A DNA stretch of 64,000 nt from Bacillota bacterium (GTDB taxonomy: Bacteria; Bacillota; UBA994; UBA5500), in contig JBMNFB010000009.1 of assembly GCA_050949085.1 (NCBI GenBank), positions 352,446 through 416,445 of the forward strand, given 5' to 3'. The position numbers were made by a program, and so were the translations under genes. This document shows, one piece after another, positions 1 through 56,599 of this stretch (its first letter is position 1; the number at the start of each line of letters is the position of its first letter). The notes below the pieces were generated by a model. The model did no database searches, was not told the origin of the DNA, and saw only the letters and a list, made by a program, of their open reading frames with translations.

Positions 1-240
1 TTCAATAAGGCGATGTTTGCTTGTCAAACATCGGATGGTACCCAAAGCAAGTCGGTACGACTTGCGAGTTCAATAAGGCGATGTTTGCTTGTCAAACATC
101 GGATGGTACCCAAAGCAAGTCGGTACGACTTGCGAGTTCAATAAGGCGATGTTTGCTTGTCAAACATCGGATGGTACCCAACAGCAAGTCGGTACGACTT
201 GCGAGTTCAATAAGGCGATGTTTGCTTGTCAAACATCGGG
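1..240. repeat. Tandem array A1 of a 68/69-nt double-hairpin unit (at least 3.5 copies; cut by the window edge)
   Basis: Unit AGCAAGTCGGTACGACTTGCGAGTTCAATAAGGCGATGTTTGCTTGTCAAACATCGGATGGTACCCAA restarts at 46, 114 and 183. The third copy has one inserted base. Each unit has hairpins GCAAGTCG-gta-CGACTTGC and CGATGTTTG-cttgt-CAAACATCG. The array ends about 20 nt beyond the hutI stop. Confidence 0.95.
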
Positions 241-259: not shown

Positions 260-1540
260 TTACGGATTCGCATGCACCAGCCTGCCGTCAACGACAACCT
301 GGCGGCCACGTTTGAACACGTGCCGTACTAAGTTTACCCCAAAGTGATAGGGCACAAAATCCAGATTAGGCGCGTCGTAAACGACACAATCGGCCAGCTT
401 GCCCACTTCCAGGCTACCCACGTCGCCAGCTACACCCAAGGCGTGAGCTGCATTGATGGTTGCCGCCGCCAGCGCCTGCGCCGGGGTCAGGCCCAGGCTC
501 TGCCAGGCCAGCGTCAGGATCATCTGCATCGATTCGGTGGGACAGGTGCCCGGGTTGAAGTCGGTGGCCAGAGCAATCGGCACGCCGGCCTCCAACATGG
601 CCGCTACATCCGGCCGCTGGTTGCTGCGCAGGGTGAAGCTGGTTCCCGGCAGGAGGACTGCCACCACCCCGGCTTGCGCCATCGCCCTGATGCCAGCCGG
701 CGAGGCGTGCAGCAGATGGTCCGCAGAAACGGCCCCGAGTTCAGCCGCTAACTCGGCGCCGCCGAAAGGGACCAACTCGTCGGCATGCAGCTTGGCCTGC
801 AGGCCAAGCCGGGCCGCCGCCTGCAAAATGCGCCGGCTCTCTTCAACCGAGAAAACACCTTCCTCACAGAATACATCGCAGAAGCGCGCGATACCCTGCC
901 TGGCTACGGCCGGCAGCATCTCCTCGATGATCAACTGCACAAATCCGTCAGAATCACCCTGATACTCCGGTGGGATAGCATGGGCGCCCATGAAAGTAGA
1001 GACCACATCGACCGGATGGCGCTGATCGGCCAGATGCGCGGCCTGGAGCTGCCTCAGTTCGCTCTCCGTCGTCAACCCGTAGCCGCTCTTAGCCTCTGCG
1101 GTGGTAGTGCCATAGAGGAGCATCCGATCGAGGTTCTTCATCGCCAGCTCAGTCAGCCGCTCCAGGCTGGCAGCGCGCGTCGCCCGCACCGTGCTCAGGA
1201 TCCCATAACCCTCCGCCAGAATATCGAGGTAAGGTTTCCCCTCGAGTTTCATCGACAGTTCCTGCTCTCGCCAGCCAGCAAAAACCAGATGGGTATGAGG
1301 ATCGACAAAGCCCGGCAGAACCGTGGCTTGTCTTACATCCACCACCCGGGTGTCTGGGCCGAGATAGCTCTGATGCTCAGACATCGGTCCGCTGCCCAGC
1401 ACGCGCTCCCCCCGGATCGCCAGGAAAGCATCAGTCTGACGCGACAGCTCCCCCAGTTCAGCGCCCACTTGCGGCCGCTGACTATAACCCACTGTCGTTG
1501 CCAGTTCGCCGATGTTGATCAGCAGCAGATCAGCTACCAT
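260..1540 (-). CDS. hutI: Imidazolonepropionase
   Basis: Amidohydrolase motifs PGFVDPHTHLVF, KSGYGL, HADE. ATG at 1540 follows GAAGGGTGAG and lies 1 nt after the upstream stop (ORF-track start 1549 is GTG). Confidence 0.9.
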   Translation of the reverse strand: MVADLLLINIGELATTVGYSQRPQVGAELGELSRQTDAFLAIRGERVLGSGPMSEHQSYLGPDTRVVDVRQATVLPGFVDPHTHLVFAGWREQELSMKLEGKPYLDILAEGYGILSTVRATRAASLERLTELAMKNLDRMLLYGTTTAEAKSGYGLTTESELRQLQAAHLADQRHPVDVVSTFMGAHAIPPEYQGDSDGFVQLIIEEMLPAVARQGIARFCDVFCEEGVFSVEESRRILQAAARLGLQAKLHADELVPFGGAELAAELGAVSADHLLHASPAGIRAMAQAGVVAVLLPGTSFTLRSNQRPDVAAMLEAGVPIALATDFNPGTCPTESMQMILTLAWQSLGLTPAQALAAATINAAHALGVAGDVGSLEVGKLADCVVYDAPNLDFVPYHFGVNLVRHVFKRGRQVVVDGRLVHANP

Positions 1541-29553: not shown

Positions 29554-29739
29554 CTTAACATCTCACTCCCTTGCTGTTCTGGGTGTTCCCCTATTCTCTT
29601 CGACGCCTACCCATGTATTCCCTTTCTGTATTCCATAATGTTGTGAAAAATACCGCTAATTTTTTGGCCGCAGCCTGCTGAATTTTTCCCGCCTCCAGAA
29701 GAGAAACTAAGACAGATTCTGAGAAGGAGGGTGAACGAC

Positions 29740-30285
29740 TTGAAGAAAACTGTTATCGGTGTTTTTTCAGCTGAGTCCAGAGCGGAACAGGCCGTAAGGC
29801 AGTTGCGTGACAGCGGCTTCTCCGGCAACGAGATCAGCATTGTCTCTAAGGATGATGGTCGCCGGGAGTCTTCTCGCGGCGGTGGTGCCATCAATCGATC
29901 CAGTTACGAAGGCGGCACGATGAGCGGCGACAGACGTAGCGGCATGGGCATGGATCAGGTCAGCGATGGCGCCCTTAGCGGAGCCGCGTGGGGCGGGCTG
30001 GCTGGTCTCGCCTTAGGCGCAGGTGCCCTGGCAATACCGGGAGTCGGCCCACTGCTGGCCGCTGGACCGATCAGCGCCGCTCTGACGGGCGCAGCCACCG
30101 GCGGGCTGGCCGGCGGATTGCTGGATTGGGGCATCCCCGAGGACCGCGGACGCCACTATGAGGATCGCGTCAAGCGCGGCGACCTGCTGGCCATCATTCA
30201 GGTGTCCGATCGGCAGGCAGATCGCGCCGCGGCCGTCCTCCGCGAGAATGGCGCCCAGGATGTAGAGATTCACGATCATCGTTAA
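29740..30285 (+). CDS. General-stress-type protein with a central glycine-zipper segment (DUF1269/YflT-like)
   Basis: N-terminal VIGVFSAESRAEQAVRQLRDSGF, Gly/Ala zipper GAAWGGLAGLALGAGALAIPGVGPLLAAG, C-terminal GIPEDRGRHYEDRVKRGDLL. TTG 29740 lies 9 nt after AGGAGG (track GTG 29731). Confidence 0.7.
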   Translation: MKKTVIGVFSAESRAEQAVRQLRDSGFSGNEISIVSKDDGRRESSRGGGAINRSSYEGGTMSGDRRSGMGMDQVSDGALSGAAWGGLAGLALGAGALAIPGVGPLLAAGPISAALTGAATGGLAGGLLDWGIPEDRGRHYEDRVKRGDLLAIIQVSDRQADRAAAVLRENGAQDVEIHDHR

Positions 30286-30376: not shown

Positions 30377-30790
30377 CAGGGCATCACCCCTGAAGGCGCA
30401 TCCCGATAGGTCGTTAGTGAGGTACCAACCGATGTTTGCAGGCAAACATCGCCTTATTGACATCGCAAGTCCCTATCGGGACTCGCTTAAGAGAAGGCGA
30501 AACGAGACGGGAGTGCTTGCGCACTTGCTAGAGCAGCAACTGTCTGAGCTCTCCCTGGCAGTCATACAAGGTGAGCTCAGACGCCACCCATGGCATAGAT
30601 GCCAAGAGTTCTGGCTTCGGTGGGGCGAGTTTTGCTGCTCCCCGACTCGTTTCGTTTGATACCGTATAAGTTGGGGACATACCTCAGAGACTCAAGACGA
30701 GCATCAGGCAATGCCCACCAAATCGGCATCATGCTGAGGTGTGTCCCCTGACCTTTGACGACATCGGCGCGCCCGAAGGGGTGTGCCCTG
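30377..30790. repeat. Copy A of a structured intergenic element bounded by inverted repeats (candidate ncRNA or MITE-like element)
   Basis: Arms CAGGGCATCACCCCT (30377-30391) and AGGGGTGTGCCCTG (30777-30790). Shares ordered blocks with 42089-42384, including identical AGCAGCAACTGT and GCGAGTTTTGCTGCT. Contains one 68-nt double-hairpin unit. Confidence 0.75.
30421..30490 (-). repeat. Solitary copy of the 68-nt double-hairpin unit, inverted relative to arrays A1 and A2
   Basis: The reverse complement reads GCGAGTCCC-gata-GGGACTTGC ... AATAAGG CGATGTTTG-cctg-CAAACATCG GTTGGTACC. It is collinear with the array unit. Confidence 0.85.
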
Positions 30791-30796
30791 ACTTGG

Positions 30797-30830
30797 GGGG
30801 TTGCTGGTGCAACAGCCCCTTTTCTTATTT
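30797..30830 (+). terminator. Plus-strand hairpin plus T-tract overlapping the purR stop
   Basis: GGGGTTGC-tggt-GCAACAGCCCC (one bulge) followed by TTTTCTTATTT. There is no T-tract on the minus strand, so it fits termination of a plus-strand transcript ending at element A. Confidence 0.5.
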
Positions 30831-31694
30831 CTGACGTCTGAACCAGCAGCCCGGGCTGGCGACAACCCGCTGCCCCACCGGATCGATTTCCTCAAGGCAG
30901 GCCACCGCATAGAATTCGCTGACCAGCTTCTGCTCAGGCTGGCTGGTGGCCACCAGCACTCCACAGCCGACGGTGGTGGCGCCAAACTCCTGCATCAGCT
31001 GCTCCAGCCCGAGGGCGGTTCCACCAGCGCGCATAAAGTCGTCAATGATCAGGGCCCGGGCCGCCTGGGGCACGCTGCGTCGCGGCAGCGCCATCGTCTG
31101 CACCCGCTGGCTTGAGCCCGAAACGTAATTGATGTTCACCGTTGGGCCCTCGCTGCGCTCATGCCTCATCAGGAGCGGCCAGCCTGCCTCACTGGAGCCA
31201 GGCAGTTCCTTGCGGGCGATGGCCAGAGGCACGCCCAGATAACGTGCCGTCGCATAGGCCAGGGGAATCCCCCGCATCTCGACGGTGAGCACCACATCGG
31301 GCTGACGTTCGGCAAAAATGTGGGCAAAAAGCTGCGCAAATCGCTCCACCTGCTGGGCATCGCTGCAGAGATCGCTGGTATAGAGATAGCCGCCGGGGAG
31401 AATGCGCGCCGGATCGGCCAGTTGCTCACAGAGCAGCTGCACCGTCTCCCGCTCCCAGGCAGCATCGCCGCCAGGGAGCCACCTGATCCCGCCGTTAACA
31501 CCGGCAACCGTCTCGATCCGACCCAGATTGAGGGCGGCAAGGCTATCCTTTAGCTGAGCTACATCCTCGCTGAGGGTAGACTTGGCTACGCCTAGTCTGT
31601 CCGCCAGTTCGGTGAGCGAGATCACCTGATTAGGGCGGTCCGCCAGGAGTCGGGTGATAACCCCAGCTCGTCCCCCCTTACTCAACCTCTCCAC
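30825..31694 (-). CDS. purR: Pur operon repressor
   Basis: N-terminal winged-helix region and a PRT domain with LIIDDFMRAGGTALG. Synteny ispE...purR...spoVG. GTG start after GAGGAGG. Confidence 0.9.
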   Translation of the reverse strand: MERLSKGGRAGVITRLLADRPNQVISLTELADRLGVAKSTLSEDVAQLKDSLAALNLGRIETVAGVNGGIRWLPGGDAAWERETVQLLCEQLADPARILPGGYLYTSDLCSDAQQVERFAQLFAHIFAERQPDVVLTVEMRGIPLAYATARYLGVPLAIARKELPGSSEAGWPLLMRHERSEGPTVNINYVSGSSQRVQTMALPRRSVPQAARALIIDDFMRAGGTALGLEQLMQEFGATTVGCGVLVATSQPEQKLVSEFYAVACLEEIDPVGQRVVASPGCWFRRQK

Positions 31695-40078: not shown

Positions 40079-41989
40079 CTACTTCACCCGGCTGCCCGAT
40101 TCCGCGCCACCCAGCGGAGTGAGCACGGCCAGCCTGTTGCCAGCGGAGGCAGCCAGGACCATACCCTGGGACTCAATGCCCCGCAGCTTGCGCGGCTTCA
40201 GATTGGCCACGATCACCACCTGCTTGCCCACCAGGTCTTCTGGCGCGTATGATGCGGCGATTCCGGCCACAATCGTCCGCTGGGTGGGCCCCATCTGCAC
40301 CGTCAGCTTCAGCAATTTATCGGTTTTCGGCACCCGTTCCGCCGCCAGCACATCGACGACGCGCAGGTCGACCTGATCGAAGAGGTCAATCTCAATCTCA
40401 TCGGCCAGCGGCGGTTCCAGCGTCTTTGGTGCCGGGGTCAGGGCTGCCAGCTCCTTGGCCAGATCAACCCGCGGGAAAATCGGCGCTCCCTTACGCACCC
40501 GCCGCCCACTGGGGAGTAACCCCGGAACAGCCGTCTCCCAGGCAGCAAAATCAGCCGCCTCCAGACCCAGCTGCTCCCAAATCCGAAGCGATGTGCTCGG
40601 CAGGAAAGGCTGGAGCAGTGTTGCCGAGAGCCGCAGCACATCGGCCAGATGGTAGAGCACCGTCGCCAGTTGCCCCCGGGTCTCAGTCGACCTGGCCAGA
40701 ATCCAGGGGGTCGTCTCGTCAATATACTTGTTGGAGCGCTTGATCAGCTCCATAATCGCTTCCAGTGCCACGTTGAACTGCAGGGCGTCGGTGGCGGCTT
40801 CCACCGCTGCCCGCGTCTTGCCGGCCAGTTCGAGCAATGCAGCATCAAACTCGGTCGGCTCAGCTGCCGCCGGAATTTCACCGCCGAAGTACTGCGCAAT
40901 CATGGAGACAGTGCGACTGAGCAGATTGCCCAGGTCGTTGGCCAGATCGGCGTTGAGGCGCGTGATGAACAGTTCGTTGGTGAAATTGCCGTCCGCACCC
41001 AGGGAGATCTCCCGCAACAGATAGTAGCGCAGGGCGTCAACCCCATAGCGCTCCGCGAGGACGACGGGGTCGACCACATTGCCCTTGGACTTGGACATCT
41101 TGTCGCTGTCAAACAGCCACCAGCCGTGCCCATAGACCTGCTTCGGCAGCGGCAGGTCGAGAGCCATCAGCAGTGCTGGCCAGATGATCGAGTGGAAGCG
41201 CACGATCTCCTTCCCCATCAGGTGCACATCGGCCGGCCAGTAACGCTGGAACTGCGCGTCGTCCGTCTGAGTATACCCCAGGGCACTGATATAGCCGCTG
41301 AGCGCATCGATCCAGACATAGGCGACATGCTTTGGATCAAACGGCACCGGGACGCCCCAGGAGAAGGTAGTGCGGGAGACGCAGAGGTCCTCCAGCCCCG
41401 ACCTGAGGAAGTTGTTCACCATCTCGTTGCGCCGCGAGGCCGGCTGGATGAACTCAGGATGCTCCTCGATGTGCCTGAGCAGCCGATCCTGATACCTGGA
41501 AAGACGGAAGAAGTAGCTCTCCTCGGTCACCCACTGTACTTCCCGGCCACAATCGGGGCATTTGCCATCCTTCAGTTGCCGATCGGTCCAGAAGGCTTCG
41601 CACGGCGTGCAGTAATGCCCCTGATACTCGCTCTTGTAGATGTCACCCTGCTCGTACAGTCTGGTAAAGATCCGAGCGACTGCCTGCTTATGCTGCTCGG
41701 CGGTGGTGCGGATAAAGACGTCATAGTCCACAGCGAGGAGCTTCCACAGCGCCTTGAATTCGTCCACCAGATGATCGACGAAGCGTTGCGGATCCTCGCC
41801 CGCCGCCTCAGCCGTCTTCTGGACCTTGAGACCATGCTCGTCGGTGCCGGTGAGGAAGCAGACATCATAGCCCCGCAAACGTTTGTAGCGAGCCAGCGTA
41901 TCGGCCAGGACGCTGGTATAGGCATGGCCGATGTGGGGCTGCCCGCTGGTATAGTAGAGCGGGGTCGTGAGATAAAACTTGGGTTTCAA
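40079..41989 (-). CDS. metG: Methionine--tRNA ligase
   Basis: HIGH (PHIGHAYT), KMSKS (DKMSKSKGN), zinc knuckle CPDCG, C-terminal tRNA-binding domain. TTG 41989 lies 9 nt after GAAGGAGA (track GTG 41998). Confidence 0.95.
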   Translation of the reverse strand: MKPKFYLTTPLYYTSGQPHIGHAYTSVLADTLARYKRLRGYDVCFLTGTDEHGLKVQKTAEAAGEDPQRFVDHLVDEFKALWKLLAVDYDVFIRTTAEQHKQAVARIFTRLYEQGDIYKSEYQGHYCTPCEAFWTDRQLKDGKCPDCGREVQWVTEESYFFRLSRYQDRLLRHIEEHPEFIQPASRRNEMVNNFLRSGLEDLCVSRTTFSWGVPVPFDPKHVAYVWIDALSGYISALGYTQTDDAQFQRYWPADVHLMGKEIVRFHSIIWPALLMALDLPLPKQVYGHGWWLFDSDKMSKSKGNVVDPVVLAERYGVDALRYYLLREISLGADGNFTNELFITRLNADLANDLGNLLSRTVSMIAQYFGGEIPAAAEPTEFDAALLELAGKTRAAVEAATDALQFNVALEAIMELIKRSNKYIDETTPWILARSTETRGQLATVLYHLADVLRLSATLLQPFLPSTSLRIWEQLGLEAADFAAWETAVPGLLPSGRRVRKGAPIFPRVDLAKELAALTPAPKTLEPPLADEIEIDLFDQVDLRVVDVLAAERVPKTDKLLKLTVQMGPTQRTIVAGIAASYAPEDLVGKQVVIVANLKPRKLRGIESQGMVLAASAGNRLAVLTPLGGAESGSRVK

Positions 41990-42088
41990 TGCACTCACTC
42001 TCCTTCAGTGATCAAACCAGGGTAATGGTTGCTTTTCATGCAGGGATAGTATCATTCAGGCGCAAGACACTAACTGTCTGCCTGGGGA

Positions 42089-42416: not shown

Positions 42417-42672
42417 GTACAAAAAACCGCCATCCCCTCAGGGACGGCGGTCCGTGGTACCACCCTGCTTTGCTGGCTAAAGCCAGCCTCAGCGGCATAA
42501 GAAGCCTATCAGATAACGCCTGAATCACGGGGTGACCTAACTCCTGCGAACTCAGCCACCCGGCTCCGGAGCCATCTTCATCGGTAACCCGTCTGCCGGC
42601 TTGCACCTGCACCGGCTCTCTGGAAGACGCGTTGGTCCGATTACTCTTTCCTTCATTGCCTGTAATTTGCGA
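42417..42672 (-). promoter_or_regulatory. T-box riboswitch leader (candidate Met specifier AUG) with intrinsic terminator at 42420-42450
   Basis: Minus strand: stem I elements AGAGAG and GGTGCAA, then CCGAUGAAGAUGG in the specifier region. T-box AGGGTGGTACCACGG with antiterminator ACGG-accg-CCGT-CCCT. Terminator CCGCCGTCCC-tgag-GGGATGGCGG plus TTTTTTGT; its G-T wobble fits only the minus strand. Confidence 0.85.
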
Positions 42673-44184: not shown

Positions 44185-44330
44185 CCTTAGCAGAGTCTCT
44201 GGGAAACCAAACATGGCCTCCGCAGACAGCGAAGGCCATGAAAAGCACACTAAGCTAATCAGGTTATCTTCACCTCGGCAGGCGGTTTCCCTTTAGGCCT
44301 TCCGGCACCTGCTGTCTACGGTCATTTGCC
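44185..44330 (-). promoter_or_regulatory. Ribosomal protein L10 leader (autoregulatory RNA) with attenuator hairpin at 44201-44240
   Basis: Structured untranslated leader between the promoter and rplJ. Attenuator CATGGCCTTCGC-tgtct-GCGGAGGCCATG followed by TTTGGTTT. Family assignment is from position and general knowledge of L10 leaders, not from a covariance-model search. Confidence 0.55.
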
Positions 44331-44359
44331 AGTATACCAGCCACAGCTGGTCTCGTCAA
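44331..44359 (-). promoter_or_regulatory. Sigma-A-type promoter for rplJL
   Basis: Minus strand TTGACG, 17 nt, TATACT. Confidence 0.6.
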
Positions 44360-48206: not shown

Positions 48207-48312
48207 GGATTAAATCCTTTCAAATCCCTTTGGGATTTGCAGTGGTACAAGCCGATAGTTGCTACCGCAACAATCGCTTTATTGGATTATCAAATCCCTT
48301 TGGGATTTGAAT

Positions 48313-48389
<77 letters not shown>

Positions 48390-48502
48390 CCGTTATCGAG
48401 TTGTGGTTATCAAATCCCTTCAGGATTTGCAGTGGTACAAGCCGATAGTTGCTACCGCAACGATCGCTTTATTGGATTATCAAATCCCTTCAGGATTTGA
48501 AA

Positions 48503-48579
<77 letters not shown>

Positions 48580-48594
48580 TCGTTTCACATATTG

Positions 48595-56291: not shown

Positions 56292-56310
56292 GCCGCTTCC
56301 CCCCTCCTTC

Positions 56311-56599
56311 AGCAAGTCCGTTAGGACTTGCGAGCTAGATAAGGTGATGTTTGCTTGCCAAACATCAGATGGTACATCAGCAAGTCCGTTAGGACTTGCG
56401 AGCTAGATAAGGTGATGTTTGCTTGCCAAACATCAGATGGTACCTTAGCAAGTCCGTCAGGACTTGCGAGCTAGATAAGGTGATGTTTGCTTGCCAAACA
56501 TCAGATGGCACCTTAGCAAGTCCGTCAGGACTTGCGAGCTAGATAAGGTGATGTTTGCTTGCCAAACATCAGATGGCACCTTAGCAAGTCCGTCAGGAC
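56311..56599. repeat. Tandem array A2 of the 68-nt double-hairpin unit (4 full copies plus a 17-nt partial)
   Basis: Units start at 56311, 56379, 56447, 56515 and 56583. Unit AGCAAGTCCGTYAGGACTTGCGAGCTAGATAAGGTGATGTTTGCTTGCCAAACATCAGATGGYACMTY. Fills the radA-disA intergenic space. Confidence 0.95.

Follow-up and report, generated by a model that had tools for sequence, protein, structure and literature searches.

What is the short tandem repeat that separates genes of an operon at the beginning of this stretch of Bacillota DNA, and to which kind of element does it belong? The window analysed here (64 kb of contig JBMNFB010000009.1) opens with array 1, a series of 68-nt units that each contain two hairpins, next to the imidazolonepropionase gene hutI. 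Array 1 belongs to a double-hairpin intergenic repeat family that is real, lineage-restricted, previously undescribed and of a familiar kind. With moderate confidence, we consider the family to be a lineage-specific, non-autonomous, non-coding dispersed selfish repeat that grows as tandem arrays and is similar to repetitive extragenic palindromes (REPs) and bacterial interspersed mosaic elements (BIMEs), to REPINs or to BOX elements.

Tandem Repeats Finder (TRF) described window positions 1–239 as a head-to-tail array with a period of 68 nt (3.5 copies, 99% matches, score 469). In forward orientation, each unit consists of hairpin A, linker L1, hairpin B, and linker L2. In array 1, hairpin A (GCAAGTCG-GTA-CGACTTGC) has a stem of 8 bp and the loop GTA, hairpin B (CGATGTTTG-CTTGT-CAAACATCG) has a stem of 9 bp and the loop CTTGT, and the linkers read GAGTTCAATAAGG (L1) and GATGGTACCCAAA (L2), with one additional C at ~181 in the third linker. 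Exact patterns for hairpins B and A matched nine and seven times in the window, respectively, and neither matched in 100 shuffles. A covariance model (R1), built from nine variants of the family and run unfiltered, matched the units of array 1 with 84, 84, 66, and 42 bits. The forward orientation of array 1 lies on the plus strand and is antisense to the hut genes. Its parts and the adjacent gene are placed as follows:

1–239, plus strand: the window part of array 1, 3.5 of 3.9 copies (TRF, sequence, covariance model R1, contig L089)
47–65, 115–133 and 184–202, plus strand: copies of hairpin A (pattern search, folding)
11–33, 79–101, 147–169 and 216–238, plus strand: copies of hairpin B (pattern search)
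260–1540, minus strand: hutI, encoding imidazolonepropionase, transcriptionally upstream of array 1, with its stop codon 20 nt from the array (Pfam Amidohydro_1/3; gene order of L089)

A preliminary description of this DNA, made from the sequence alone, had proposed a head-to-tail array of 68-nt two-hairpin units with one inserted base in the third copy, ending about 20 nt from the hutI stop codon. TRF, the sequence itself and the pattern search against shuffles confirmed the array, the extra C at ~181 is the inserted base, and the distance agrees with an array end at 239 and a stop codon at 260–262. The same description had the array abutting the 3′ end of the hut operon and running off the window edge with open length, and had proposed to extend the contig leftwards. 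Extension through contig L089, which is 99.96% identical to the window, corrected both views. There, array 1 is complete with 266 nt and ends after 3.9 copies (L089 12200–12465), so only about 27 nt fall outside the window. The gene order on one strand of L089 is hutH-hutU-ftcd(N)-hutI-[array]-56-aa open reading frame (ORF)-FTCD_C-FTHFS, with the cyclodeaminase (FTCD_C) and formate–tetrahydrofolate ligase (FTHFS) genes both beyond the array. Because same-strand genes follow, array 1 is an intercistronic spacer within the hut/one-carbon operon and not the operon end. Its distance to the GGAGGTG ribosome-binding site of the 56-aa ORF is 4 nt. This small ORF (L089 12476–12646, just left of the window) has a hydrophobic C-terminal segment and a strong GGAGGTG site, and no Pfam match was found for it. 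Two related metagenome-assembled genomes (MAGs) share a block of ~70 nt (L001 11430–11500, L003 11425–11500) directly upstream of their FTCD_C/FTHFS genes, the position at which the species of the window has the repeat array and the small ORF; the block has no Rfam match at E ≤ 0.1 and may be an uncharacterised leader.

Covariance model R1 revealed four loci of the family in the 64-kb window, namely array 1, a single unit at purR, a diverged variant in a tRNA cluster, and array 3 between radA and disA:

30418–30486, minus strand: single unit in inverted orientation (R1, 77.8 bits; sequence; Pfam of flanks)
48215–48312, minus strand: diverged variant, first copy (R1, 71.5 bits, match at 48241–48310; tRNA calls by ARAGORN)
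48400–48502, minus strand: diverged variant, second copy (R1, 69.9 bits, match at 48431–48500; TRF)
56306–56599, plus strand: array 3 (TRF; R1, 87–89 bits; Pfam for radA and disA)
56303–56309, minus strand: disA Shine-Dalgarno sequence AAGGAGG, separated by 4 nt from the final hairpin A in array 3 (sequence)

The single unit is flanked by the convergent genes purR (30825–31694, minus strand) and a yflT-like gene (29731–30285, plus strand), its hairpin A (GCGAGTCCC/GGGACTTGC) contains one G·U pair, and orthologous copies are found in L099, L100, L102, and L107. Array 3 (4.3 copies; stem A, GCAAGTCC/GGACTTGC; stem B, TGATGTTTG/CAAACATCA) fills the spacer between radA and disA and is antisense to both genes. 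In the tRNA cluster, the first copy of the variant lies between tRNA-Met and tRNA-Thr, co-oriented with the tRNAs and in the order A′-L1-B′-L2-A′, and the second copy lies between the two tRNA-Met genes. The pair of tRNA-Met genes results from a 190-nt tandem duplication of tRNA-Met(CAT) together with the element (48220–48584; TRF period 190, 1.9 copies). Stems of this variant are diverged (A′, TCAAATCCC/GGGATTTGA; B′, CGATTGTTGC/GCAACTATCG), while its architecture is unchanged and its linkers (AATAAAG and GCTTGTACC) are similar. Throughout the family, the linkers are partly conserved, with ..AATAAGG in L1 and G-N-T-G-G-Y-A-C-C.. in L2. The preliminary description had reported recurrences at 30421–30490 and 56311–56599, both of which are real; its census lacked the diverged tRNA-cluster locus.

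The public disA gene call (363 aa, P0001) starts at TTG 56315, within array 3; a start at TTG 56291, preceded by AAGGAGG at 56303–56309, is more plausible. Likewise, a called 75-aa ORF at the purR locus begins at an ATG within stem B. A peptide starting at the ATG in stem B behind a Shine-Dalgarno-like L2′, MF(D/G/V)KQTSPY.., was rejected: neither the ATG nor the Shine-Dalgarno-like motif occurs in the variants of the tRNA cluster and the sister species, and pairing within stem B buries the start codon. All frames of the arrays are interrupted and none of 5.8 billion proteins matched their six-frame translations, in line with the earlier view that this is no protein repeat. A tRNA-like fold was also dismissed, since ARAGORN finds none in the arrays.

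Window proteins recur on a 569-kb JGI contig (Ga0534105_00142) that is 99.92–99.96% identical to the window; its arrays (L084, L089, L099) differ from those of the window in loop bases and in the order of unit subtypes in array 3. Window proteins were also found on contigs of several other JGI, Logan, ENA, and NCBI assemblies, including MTKW01, a metagenome from a Danish anaerobic digester (PMC5480151). Three further MTKW01 contigs with 59% GC carry arrays of the family, which are located 5 nt past the stop codon of an ABC/FtsX gene (L081), upstream of an RNase_H_2/TPR gene (L082), and downstream of yqfD (L083). The gene on the other side of the L083 array, which has no Pfam match to its first 70 residues, is presumably phoH-like, judged from Bacillus gene order. 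Altogether, the species has at least seven distinct intergenic loci with hairpins of 19–23 nt, all between unidirectional or convergent genes or tRNAs. An assembly artefact, which the preliminary description had considered, is ruled out, since assemblies made independently (JGI, Logan, ENA, and NCBI) have arrays at the same loci. Short-read contigs break within the arrays, which suggests repeats of the family throughout the genome.

The host is an uncultured Bacillota species of anaerobic digesters with a window of 59% G+C, T-box and L10 leaders (Rfam), and a gene order typical of the phylum (spoIIE, tilS-hpt-ftsH, ctsR-mcsA-mcsB-clpC-radA-disA, spoVG, purR). Its nearest HutI relatives in a collection of 185,579 species are from Bacillota bacterium MAGs (74–76% identity), and the nearest named DisA relatives are from Symbiobacteriaceae MAGs (~63% identity). 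One diverged copy was detected in a sister species (DisA ~80% identical, 51% G+C; L109 7–70, 41 bits), in which the A stem is again different (GCAACGC/GCGTTGC). R1 revealed no family member among loci from other Bacillota, archaea, and other bacteria (1.39 Mb), nor was one found in 80 loci of HutI relatives (1.3 Mb), and a scan of the 185,579 species genomes, a collection without the source species, gave no exact-pattern match. The preliminary description had been unable to match the repeat to a familiar RNA or repeat family, and this was borne out in Rfam and in the repeat, plasmid, phage, and viral collections searched: viral contigs and plasmid and phage collections contained no match, and no Rfam 15 family reached its gathering score over any array, with chance-level matches only on 1–400 at E ≤ 10.

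The units were further compared for the maintenance of their stems. In an alignment of 25 distinct units fitted to R1, which as sequences are related repeats, 98.1% of cells hold standard pairs compared to 91.6% in shuffles, 6 of the 16 pairs changed on both sides, and the covariation score was 0.179, compared to 0.074 in shuffles and at most 0.041 with slid partners. Among the compensatory changes, stem B has either C-G or U-A at its foot and either T-A or G-C farther in, and the top of stem A has CG, CC, or GC, each with matching partners; stem B is the best conserved part of the unit across loci. These figures are consistent with pairing but are no proof that it acts at the RNA level, since this pattern is also seen in palindromic DNA repeats. 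With regard to stem-breaking substitutions, which the preliminary description had named as evidence against the element, the stems covary between loci, whereas orthologous single copies of other populations carry uncompensated mismatches in stem B (L102, L107) or in stem A and L1 (L092).

Covarying stems next to linkers that stay partly conserved even in the sister species could point to a functional cis-acting RNA module, such as an intercistronic processing site, a stability barrier, or a ribosome stand-by platform upstream of the next Shine-Dalgarno sequence, which recurs because it is useful. In line with this, the last hairpin A lies 2–4 nt ahead of the downstream Shine-Dalgarno sequence in the three operon-internal arrays, and the mRNA-sense strand folds with a z-score of −9.95. 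Moreover, five single-base departures leave a G·U instead of an A·C pair (L086, L092, L109, and two at purR), each on the strand co-oriented with a neighbouring gene, a bias that is suggestive but with 5/5 cases, or 3/3 unambiguous ones without the convergent purR locus, too small to be significant. Nevertheless, we regard an RNA module as unlikely: with respect to transcription, four loci are antisense, three are sense, and one is ambiguous, the flanking genes (hut, radA-disA, yqfD-phoH, an ABC transporter, tRNAs, purR) share no common function, orthologous sites of relatives work without the repeat, copy number is unstable at radA-disA, the orthologous copies L102 and L107 have the uncompensated stem mismatches described above, and Rfam offers no match.

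At three repeat loci that were scanned, no promoter-like sites were detected, and no terminator-like sites were found within the repeats; the lone terminator-like match (30614–30626) lies ~130 nt from the single unit. Both strands of the array fold far better than shuffles (z-scores of −9.95 and −4.75). A promoter based on TTGACA in the loop of hairpin B (reverse strand) was discarded, as the hexamer has no scan match and is not conserved. The closing helix GGUACC/GGUACC between successive L2 linkers, predicted by the minimum-free-energy fold, was dropped as well, since its palindrome is lost in the GGCACC, GGTACA, and TGTACC variants.

Comparison of orthologous sites bears on how the family spread. 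In the sister species (L109, L110, L112), the radA-disA spacer has no array and measures 42–46 nt, with the Shine-Dalgarno sequence in the same place, and the tRNA site is empty in L112 (17540–17660), where tRNA-Thr follows a single tRNA-Met after 3 nt. No repeat was found downstream of hutI in the relatives L001–L003. Within the species, the radA-disA array has two units in L085, three in L087, and four in L084, L086, and the window, although such differences between metagenome assemblies could partly reflect collapsed repeats; across the five assemblies, the order of unit subtypes varies between identical flanks. Arrays are 96–99% identical within and 80–87% identical between loci.

These patterns fit a selfish repeat that would spread in two steps. 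Since the orthologous sites are empty in the sister species, we infer that in this species, housekeeping operons received seed copies in intergenic spacers, as did a tRNA cluster. Each seed then probably expanded and contracted locally by slipped-strand mispairing or unequal recombination, which would leave arrays uniform inside and different between loci; here, the variation in copy number itself was observed. As promoter-like and terminator-like sites are lacking in the arrays, they are most likely read through within polycistronic RNA, where as many as eight stable stem-loops would come to lie between cistrons. It is speculative whether the arrays influence the processing or decay of the mRNA or the coupling of translation.

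The array boundaries provide a further lead on seeding. In forward orientation, all arrays start exactly at hairpin A, while their right ends are ragged and fall after B, mid-B, mid-A, or after L1. The host DNA before the first hairpin A (CACCTCCAGA, CCCTCCTTCA, GCCTCCTAA) resembles the array's own L2 tail (GGTACCCAAA, GGCACCTTA, GGCACCTAA, TGTACCACTG). At three loci, this left flank is the complement of the downstream gene's Shine-Dalgarno sequence, and at the tRNA locus it is GCTACCAAT, the tRNA 3′ end. Left flanks ending in ..YCC or ..ACC plus 3–4 nt were found at 4/5 loci, and likewise at most internal junctions. The likeness between left flanks and L2 tails could reflect a ..YCC target preference, microhomology-driven duplication, or chance, and any hint it gives of a single-strand (HUH) transposase of the IS200/IS605 or RAYT-like type is no more than a lead. 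Inverted termini, as expected of MITEs, arise trivially in the tRNA variant and array 3, in which hairpin A forms both ends, and empty sites are available only in species that are ~20% diverged.

On the strength of these junctions, the repeat could be PATE-like and derive, as a non-autonomous element, from a single-strand (HUH/Y1) transposon of the IS200/IS605 family or of a RAYT-like type, with A and B as the subterminal structures of its left and right ends. Insertion would occur 3′ of a short ..YCC motif that the element recreates by its own right end (..GGYACC), resulting in head-to-tail stacking. Such a model agrees with left junctions that are always exactly at hairpin A, with host DNA ahead of A that ends in ..CCTCC (plus 3–4 nt) or ..CTACC (plus 3 nt), and with internal junctions that end in ..TACC, ..CACC, or ..TTCC (plus 3–4 nt), and it explains both orientations, antisense at Shine-Dalgarno sequences (complement CCTCC) and sense after the CCA end of a tRNA. 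Two different hairpins with conserved single-stranded flanking motifs also correspond to the end architecture of IS200/IS605 elements such as IS608 (PMC6006769, PMC8266576). With PATEs and IS608-type ends, the family appears to share two distinct subterminal hairpins, conserved single-stranded flanking motifs, and independence from terminal inverted repeats (PMC6006769, PMC7290912), and possibly a fixed short motif at the left junction. In contrast to these elements, the unit is far shorter (68 nt) and mostly arranged in tandem arrays, and no TnpA was seen in ~75 kb; indeed, no inspected DNA of the species contains a Y1/HUH transposase gene. Clean transposition does not predict the ragged right ends, some internal junctions violate the YCC rule (TACA, CACG), and the uniformity within arrays and the recombinant unit orders fit slippage better than serial insertion. 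Only five or six independent junctions are available. Overall, we consider a PATE-like origin unlikely.

Conservation of stem B could alternatively indicate that a host protein, such as a dimeric regulator or a nucleoid or topology protein, binds the DNA of the arrays, with hairpin B (CGATGTTTG-N5-CAAACATCG) as a perfect inverted-repeat operator. E. coli REP/BIME arrays are known to bind IHF and gyrase (PMC2817692). Since the compensatory changes (C-G versus T-A at the base of stem B, T-A versus G-C inside the stem) keep pairing rather than sequence, the three scanned loci lack promoter-like sites, and the flanking genes are functionally unrelated, this is highly improbable.

The regular period also raises the question of a degenerate or orphan array of the CRISPR type, in which the repeat would consist of hairpin B plus the CCTTATTGAAC that follows it on the other strand, with hairpin A as a duplicated spacer. 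A period of ~68 nt is typical of repeat plus spacer, the core is palindromic, and the reverse strand of array 1 reads a hairpin followed by ..ATTGAAC, like the 3′ handle of many repeats. Hairpin A′ (window 48217–48240, plus strand) also resembles Rfam CRISPR-DR17 at 21/25 positions, but its 29.8 bits stay below the gathering score of 42 and the match is not significant over the whole window. ATTGAAC is not conserved, as other variants have ATCTAGC, ATCAAGA, or ATGAAAA. In agreement with the preliminary description, which had excluded CRISPR for want of unique spacers, whole units are near-identical within arrays and leave no unique segment. The supposed spacers do not differ inside an array and are homologous from one array to another. 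The arrays have no leader and are located inside operons and between tRNAs, and Pfam revealed no cas gene in the window or ~10 kb on either side. The CRISPR reading is thus effectively refuted.

Among described repeats, the family behaves like REP/BIME, REPIN, or BOX-type elements but lacks the sequence-level hallmarks of REPs and BIMEs. S. pneumoniae BOX elements consist of three modules (boxA-boxB(n)-boxC), of which only boxB is repeated, and encode no transposase. The likeness to BOX, limited to architecture, lies in a Firmicute host, a modular non-coding intergenic repeat with a variable number of tandem modules, predicted stable RNA/DNA structure, the lack of an encoded transposase, and a probably frequent co-transcription with neighbours. 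In contrast to BOX, here the whole two-hairpin unit repeats, and no sequence relationship is claimed.

REPs, which are RAYT-associated in Enterobacteria, Pseudomonas, and Stenotrophomonas, are palindromic units of 20–40 bp at many extragenic sites. They lie mostly between unidirectional or convergent genes, and one end of the palindrome bears a GTAG or CGTC tag that stays unpaired (PMC3733652), whereas BIMEs combine REPs of one family at regular spacing and in alternating orientation (PMC2817692). Judged from PMC3733652 and PMC2817692, the family shares with both that short extragenic palindromes are dispersed between unidirectional or convergent genes, often form tandem clusters with linker DNA, occur as species-specific types with covarying stems, and are probably co-transcribed in operons. 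In contrast to REPs and BIMEs, it has no GTAG or CGTC tag, its two hairpins are unrelated instead of one palindrome in alternating orientation, and its units all run head to tail at a constant period of 68 nt. Furthermore, the Pfam matches of the window plus ~10 kb on each side include no RAYT gene, and the host belongs to the Bacillota, a phylum unmentioned in the survey text of PMC3733652. High copy number (more than ~100 per genome) is characteristic of REPs and BIMEs; for the family, the local density is four loci in 64 kb. REPINs of Pseudomonas fluorescens are two inverted copies of one REP that fold into one long hairpin (PMC3116915, PMC3337134). The family resembles them in having a replicating unit of two palindromes, either single or clustered, and sequence subfamilies within a genome (PMC3116915, PMC3337134), while its hairpins A and B are unrelated and fold separately.

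Besides the possible collapse of repeats in assemblies, several observations weigh against a selfish REP-, REPIN-, or BOX-like repeat. Pfam matches revealed no transposase of any family in the window or ~10 kb on each side (~75 kb). None of the positions in seven variants has a conserved GTAG/CTAC or CGTC/GACG, which occur sporadically and in loops only, and hairpin A aligns with B or with reverse-complemented B no better than shuffles do (p = 0.07–0.7, four variants). Copies were counted in ~75 kb of the genome and three short contigs only. As the nearest relative with empty sites is only ~80% identical in DisA, boundaries and target duplications are undefinable there. Finally, the combination of conserved linkers with covarying stems is compatible with a functional RNA as well.

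Set beside REP/BIME and BOX-type repeats, the family appears less exotic than the preliminary description implied. Proteobacterial repeats of the REP/BIME type are well studied, whereas documentation in Bacillota is poor outside a few pathogens, and a RAYT link is not known to be established in this phylum. As an example, the family is compact: the two hairpins are unrelated, the period is fixed at 68 nt, and the arrays lie a few bases from ribosome-binding sites within essential operons. In practice, the arrays fragment short-read assemblies of this digester organism and mislead gene callers on start sites, as for disA. If the junction pattern is a real target preference, it provides a handle on the seeding of such repeats in Bacillota; if not, the family is one more lineage-specific selfish repeat. 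Either HUH-type mobilisation or an RNA-level role before ribosome-binding sites may apply, and IS200/IS605-like target logic, if true, would explain both the head-to-tail stacking and the orientation beside ribosome-binding sites. That the family represents an undescribed HUH-type mobilisation system of Bacillota (two hairpins, a ..YCC target, and stacking before ribosome-binding sites) or a co-opted intercistronic RNA module tuned by copy number is an unlikely outcome in our estimate.

Further observations concern neighbouring genes. A T-box leader (42437–42665, minus strand) is located upstream of metS (40079–41998), and a ribosomal protein L10 leader (44199–44339, minus strand) precedes rplJ. 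In the window, rplJ/rplL are followed by an AbrB/MazE-like gene and metS, and not by rpoB and rpoC. Gene calls for the sister species split radA into three ORFs (L109 7966–9959; L110 1464–3583; L112 7727–9955), of which the middle piece of ~240 aa has no Pfam match and may be an intein or another insertion, whereas radA of the window encodes 456 aa, is uninterrupted, and does not contain this middle piece.

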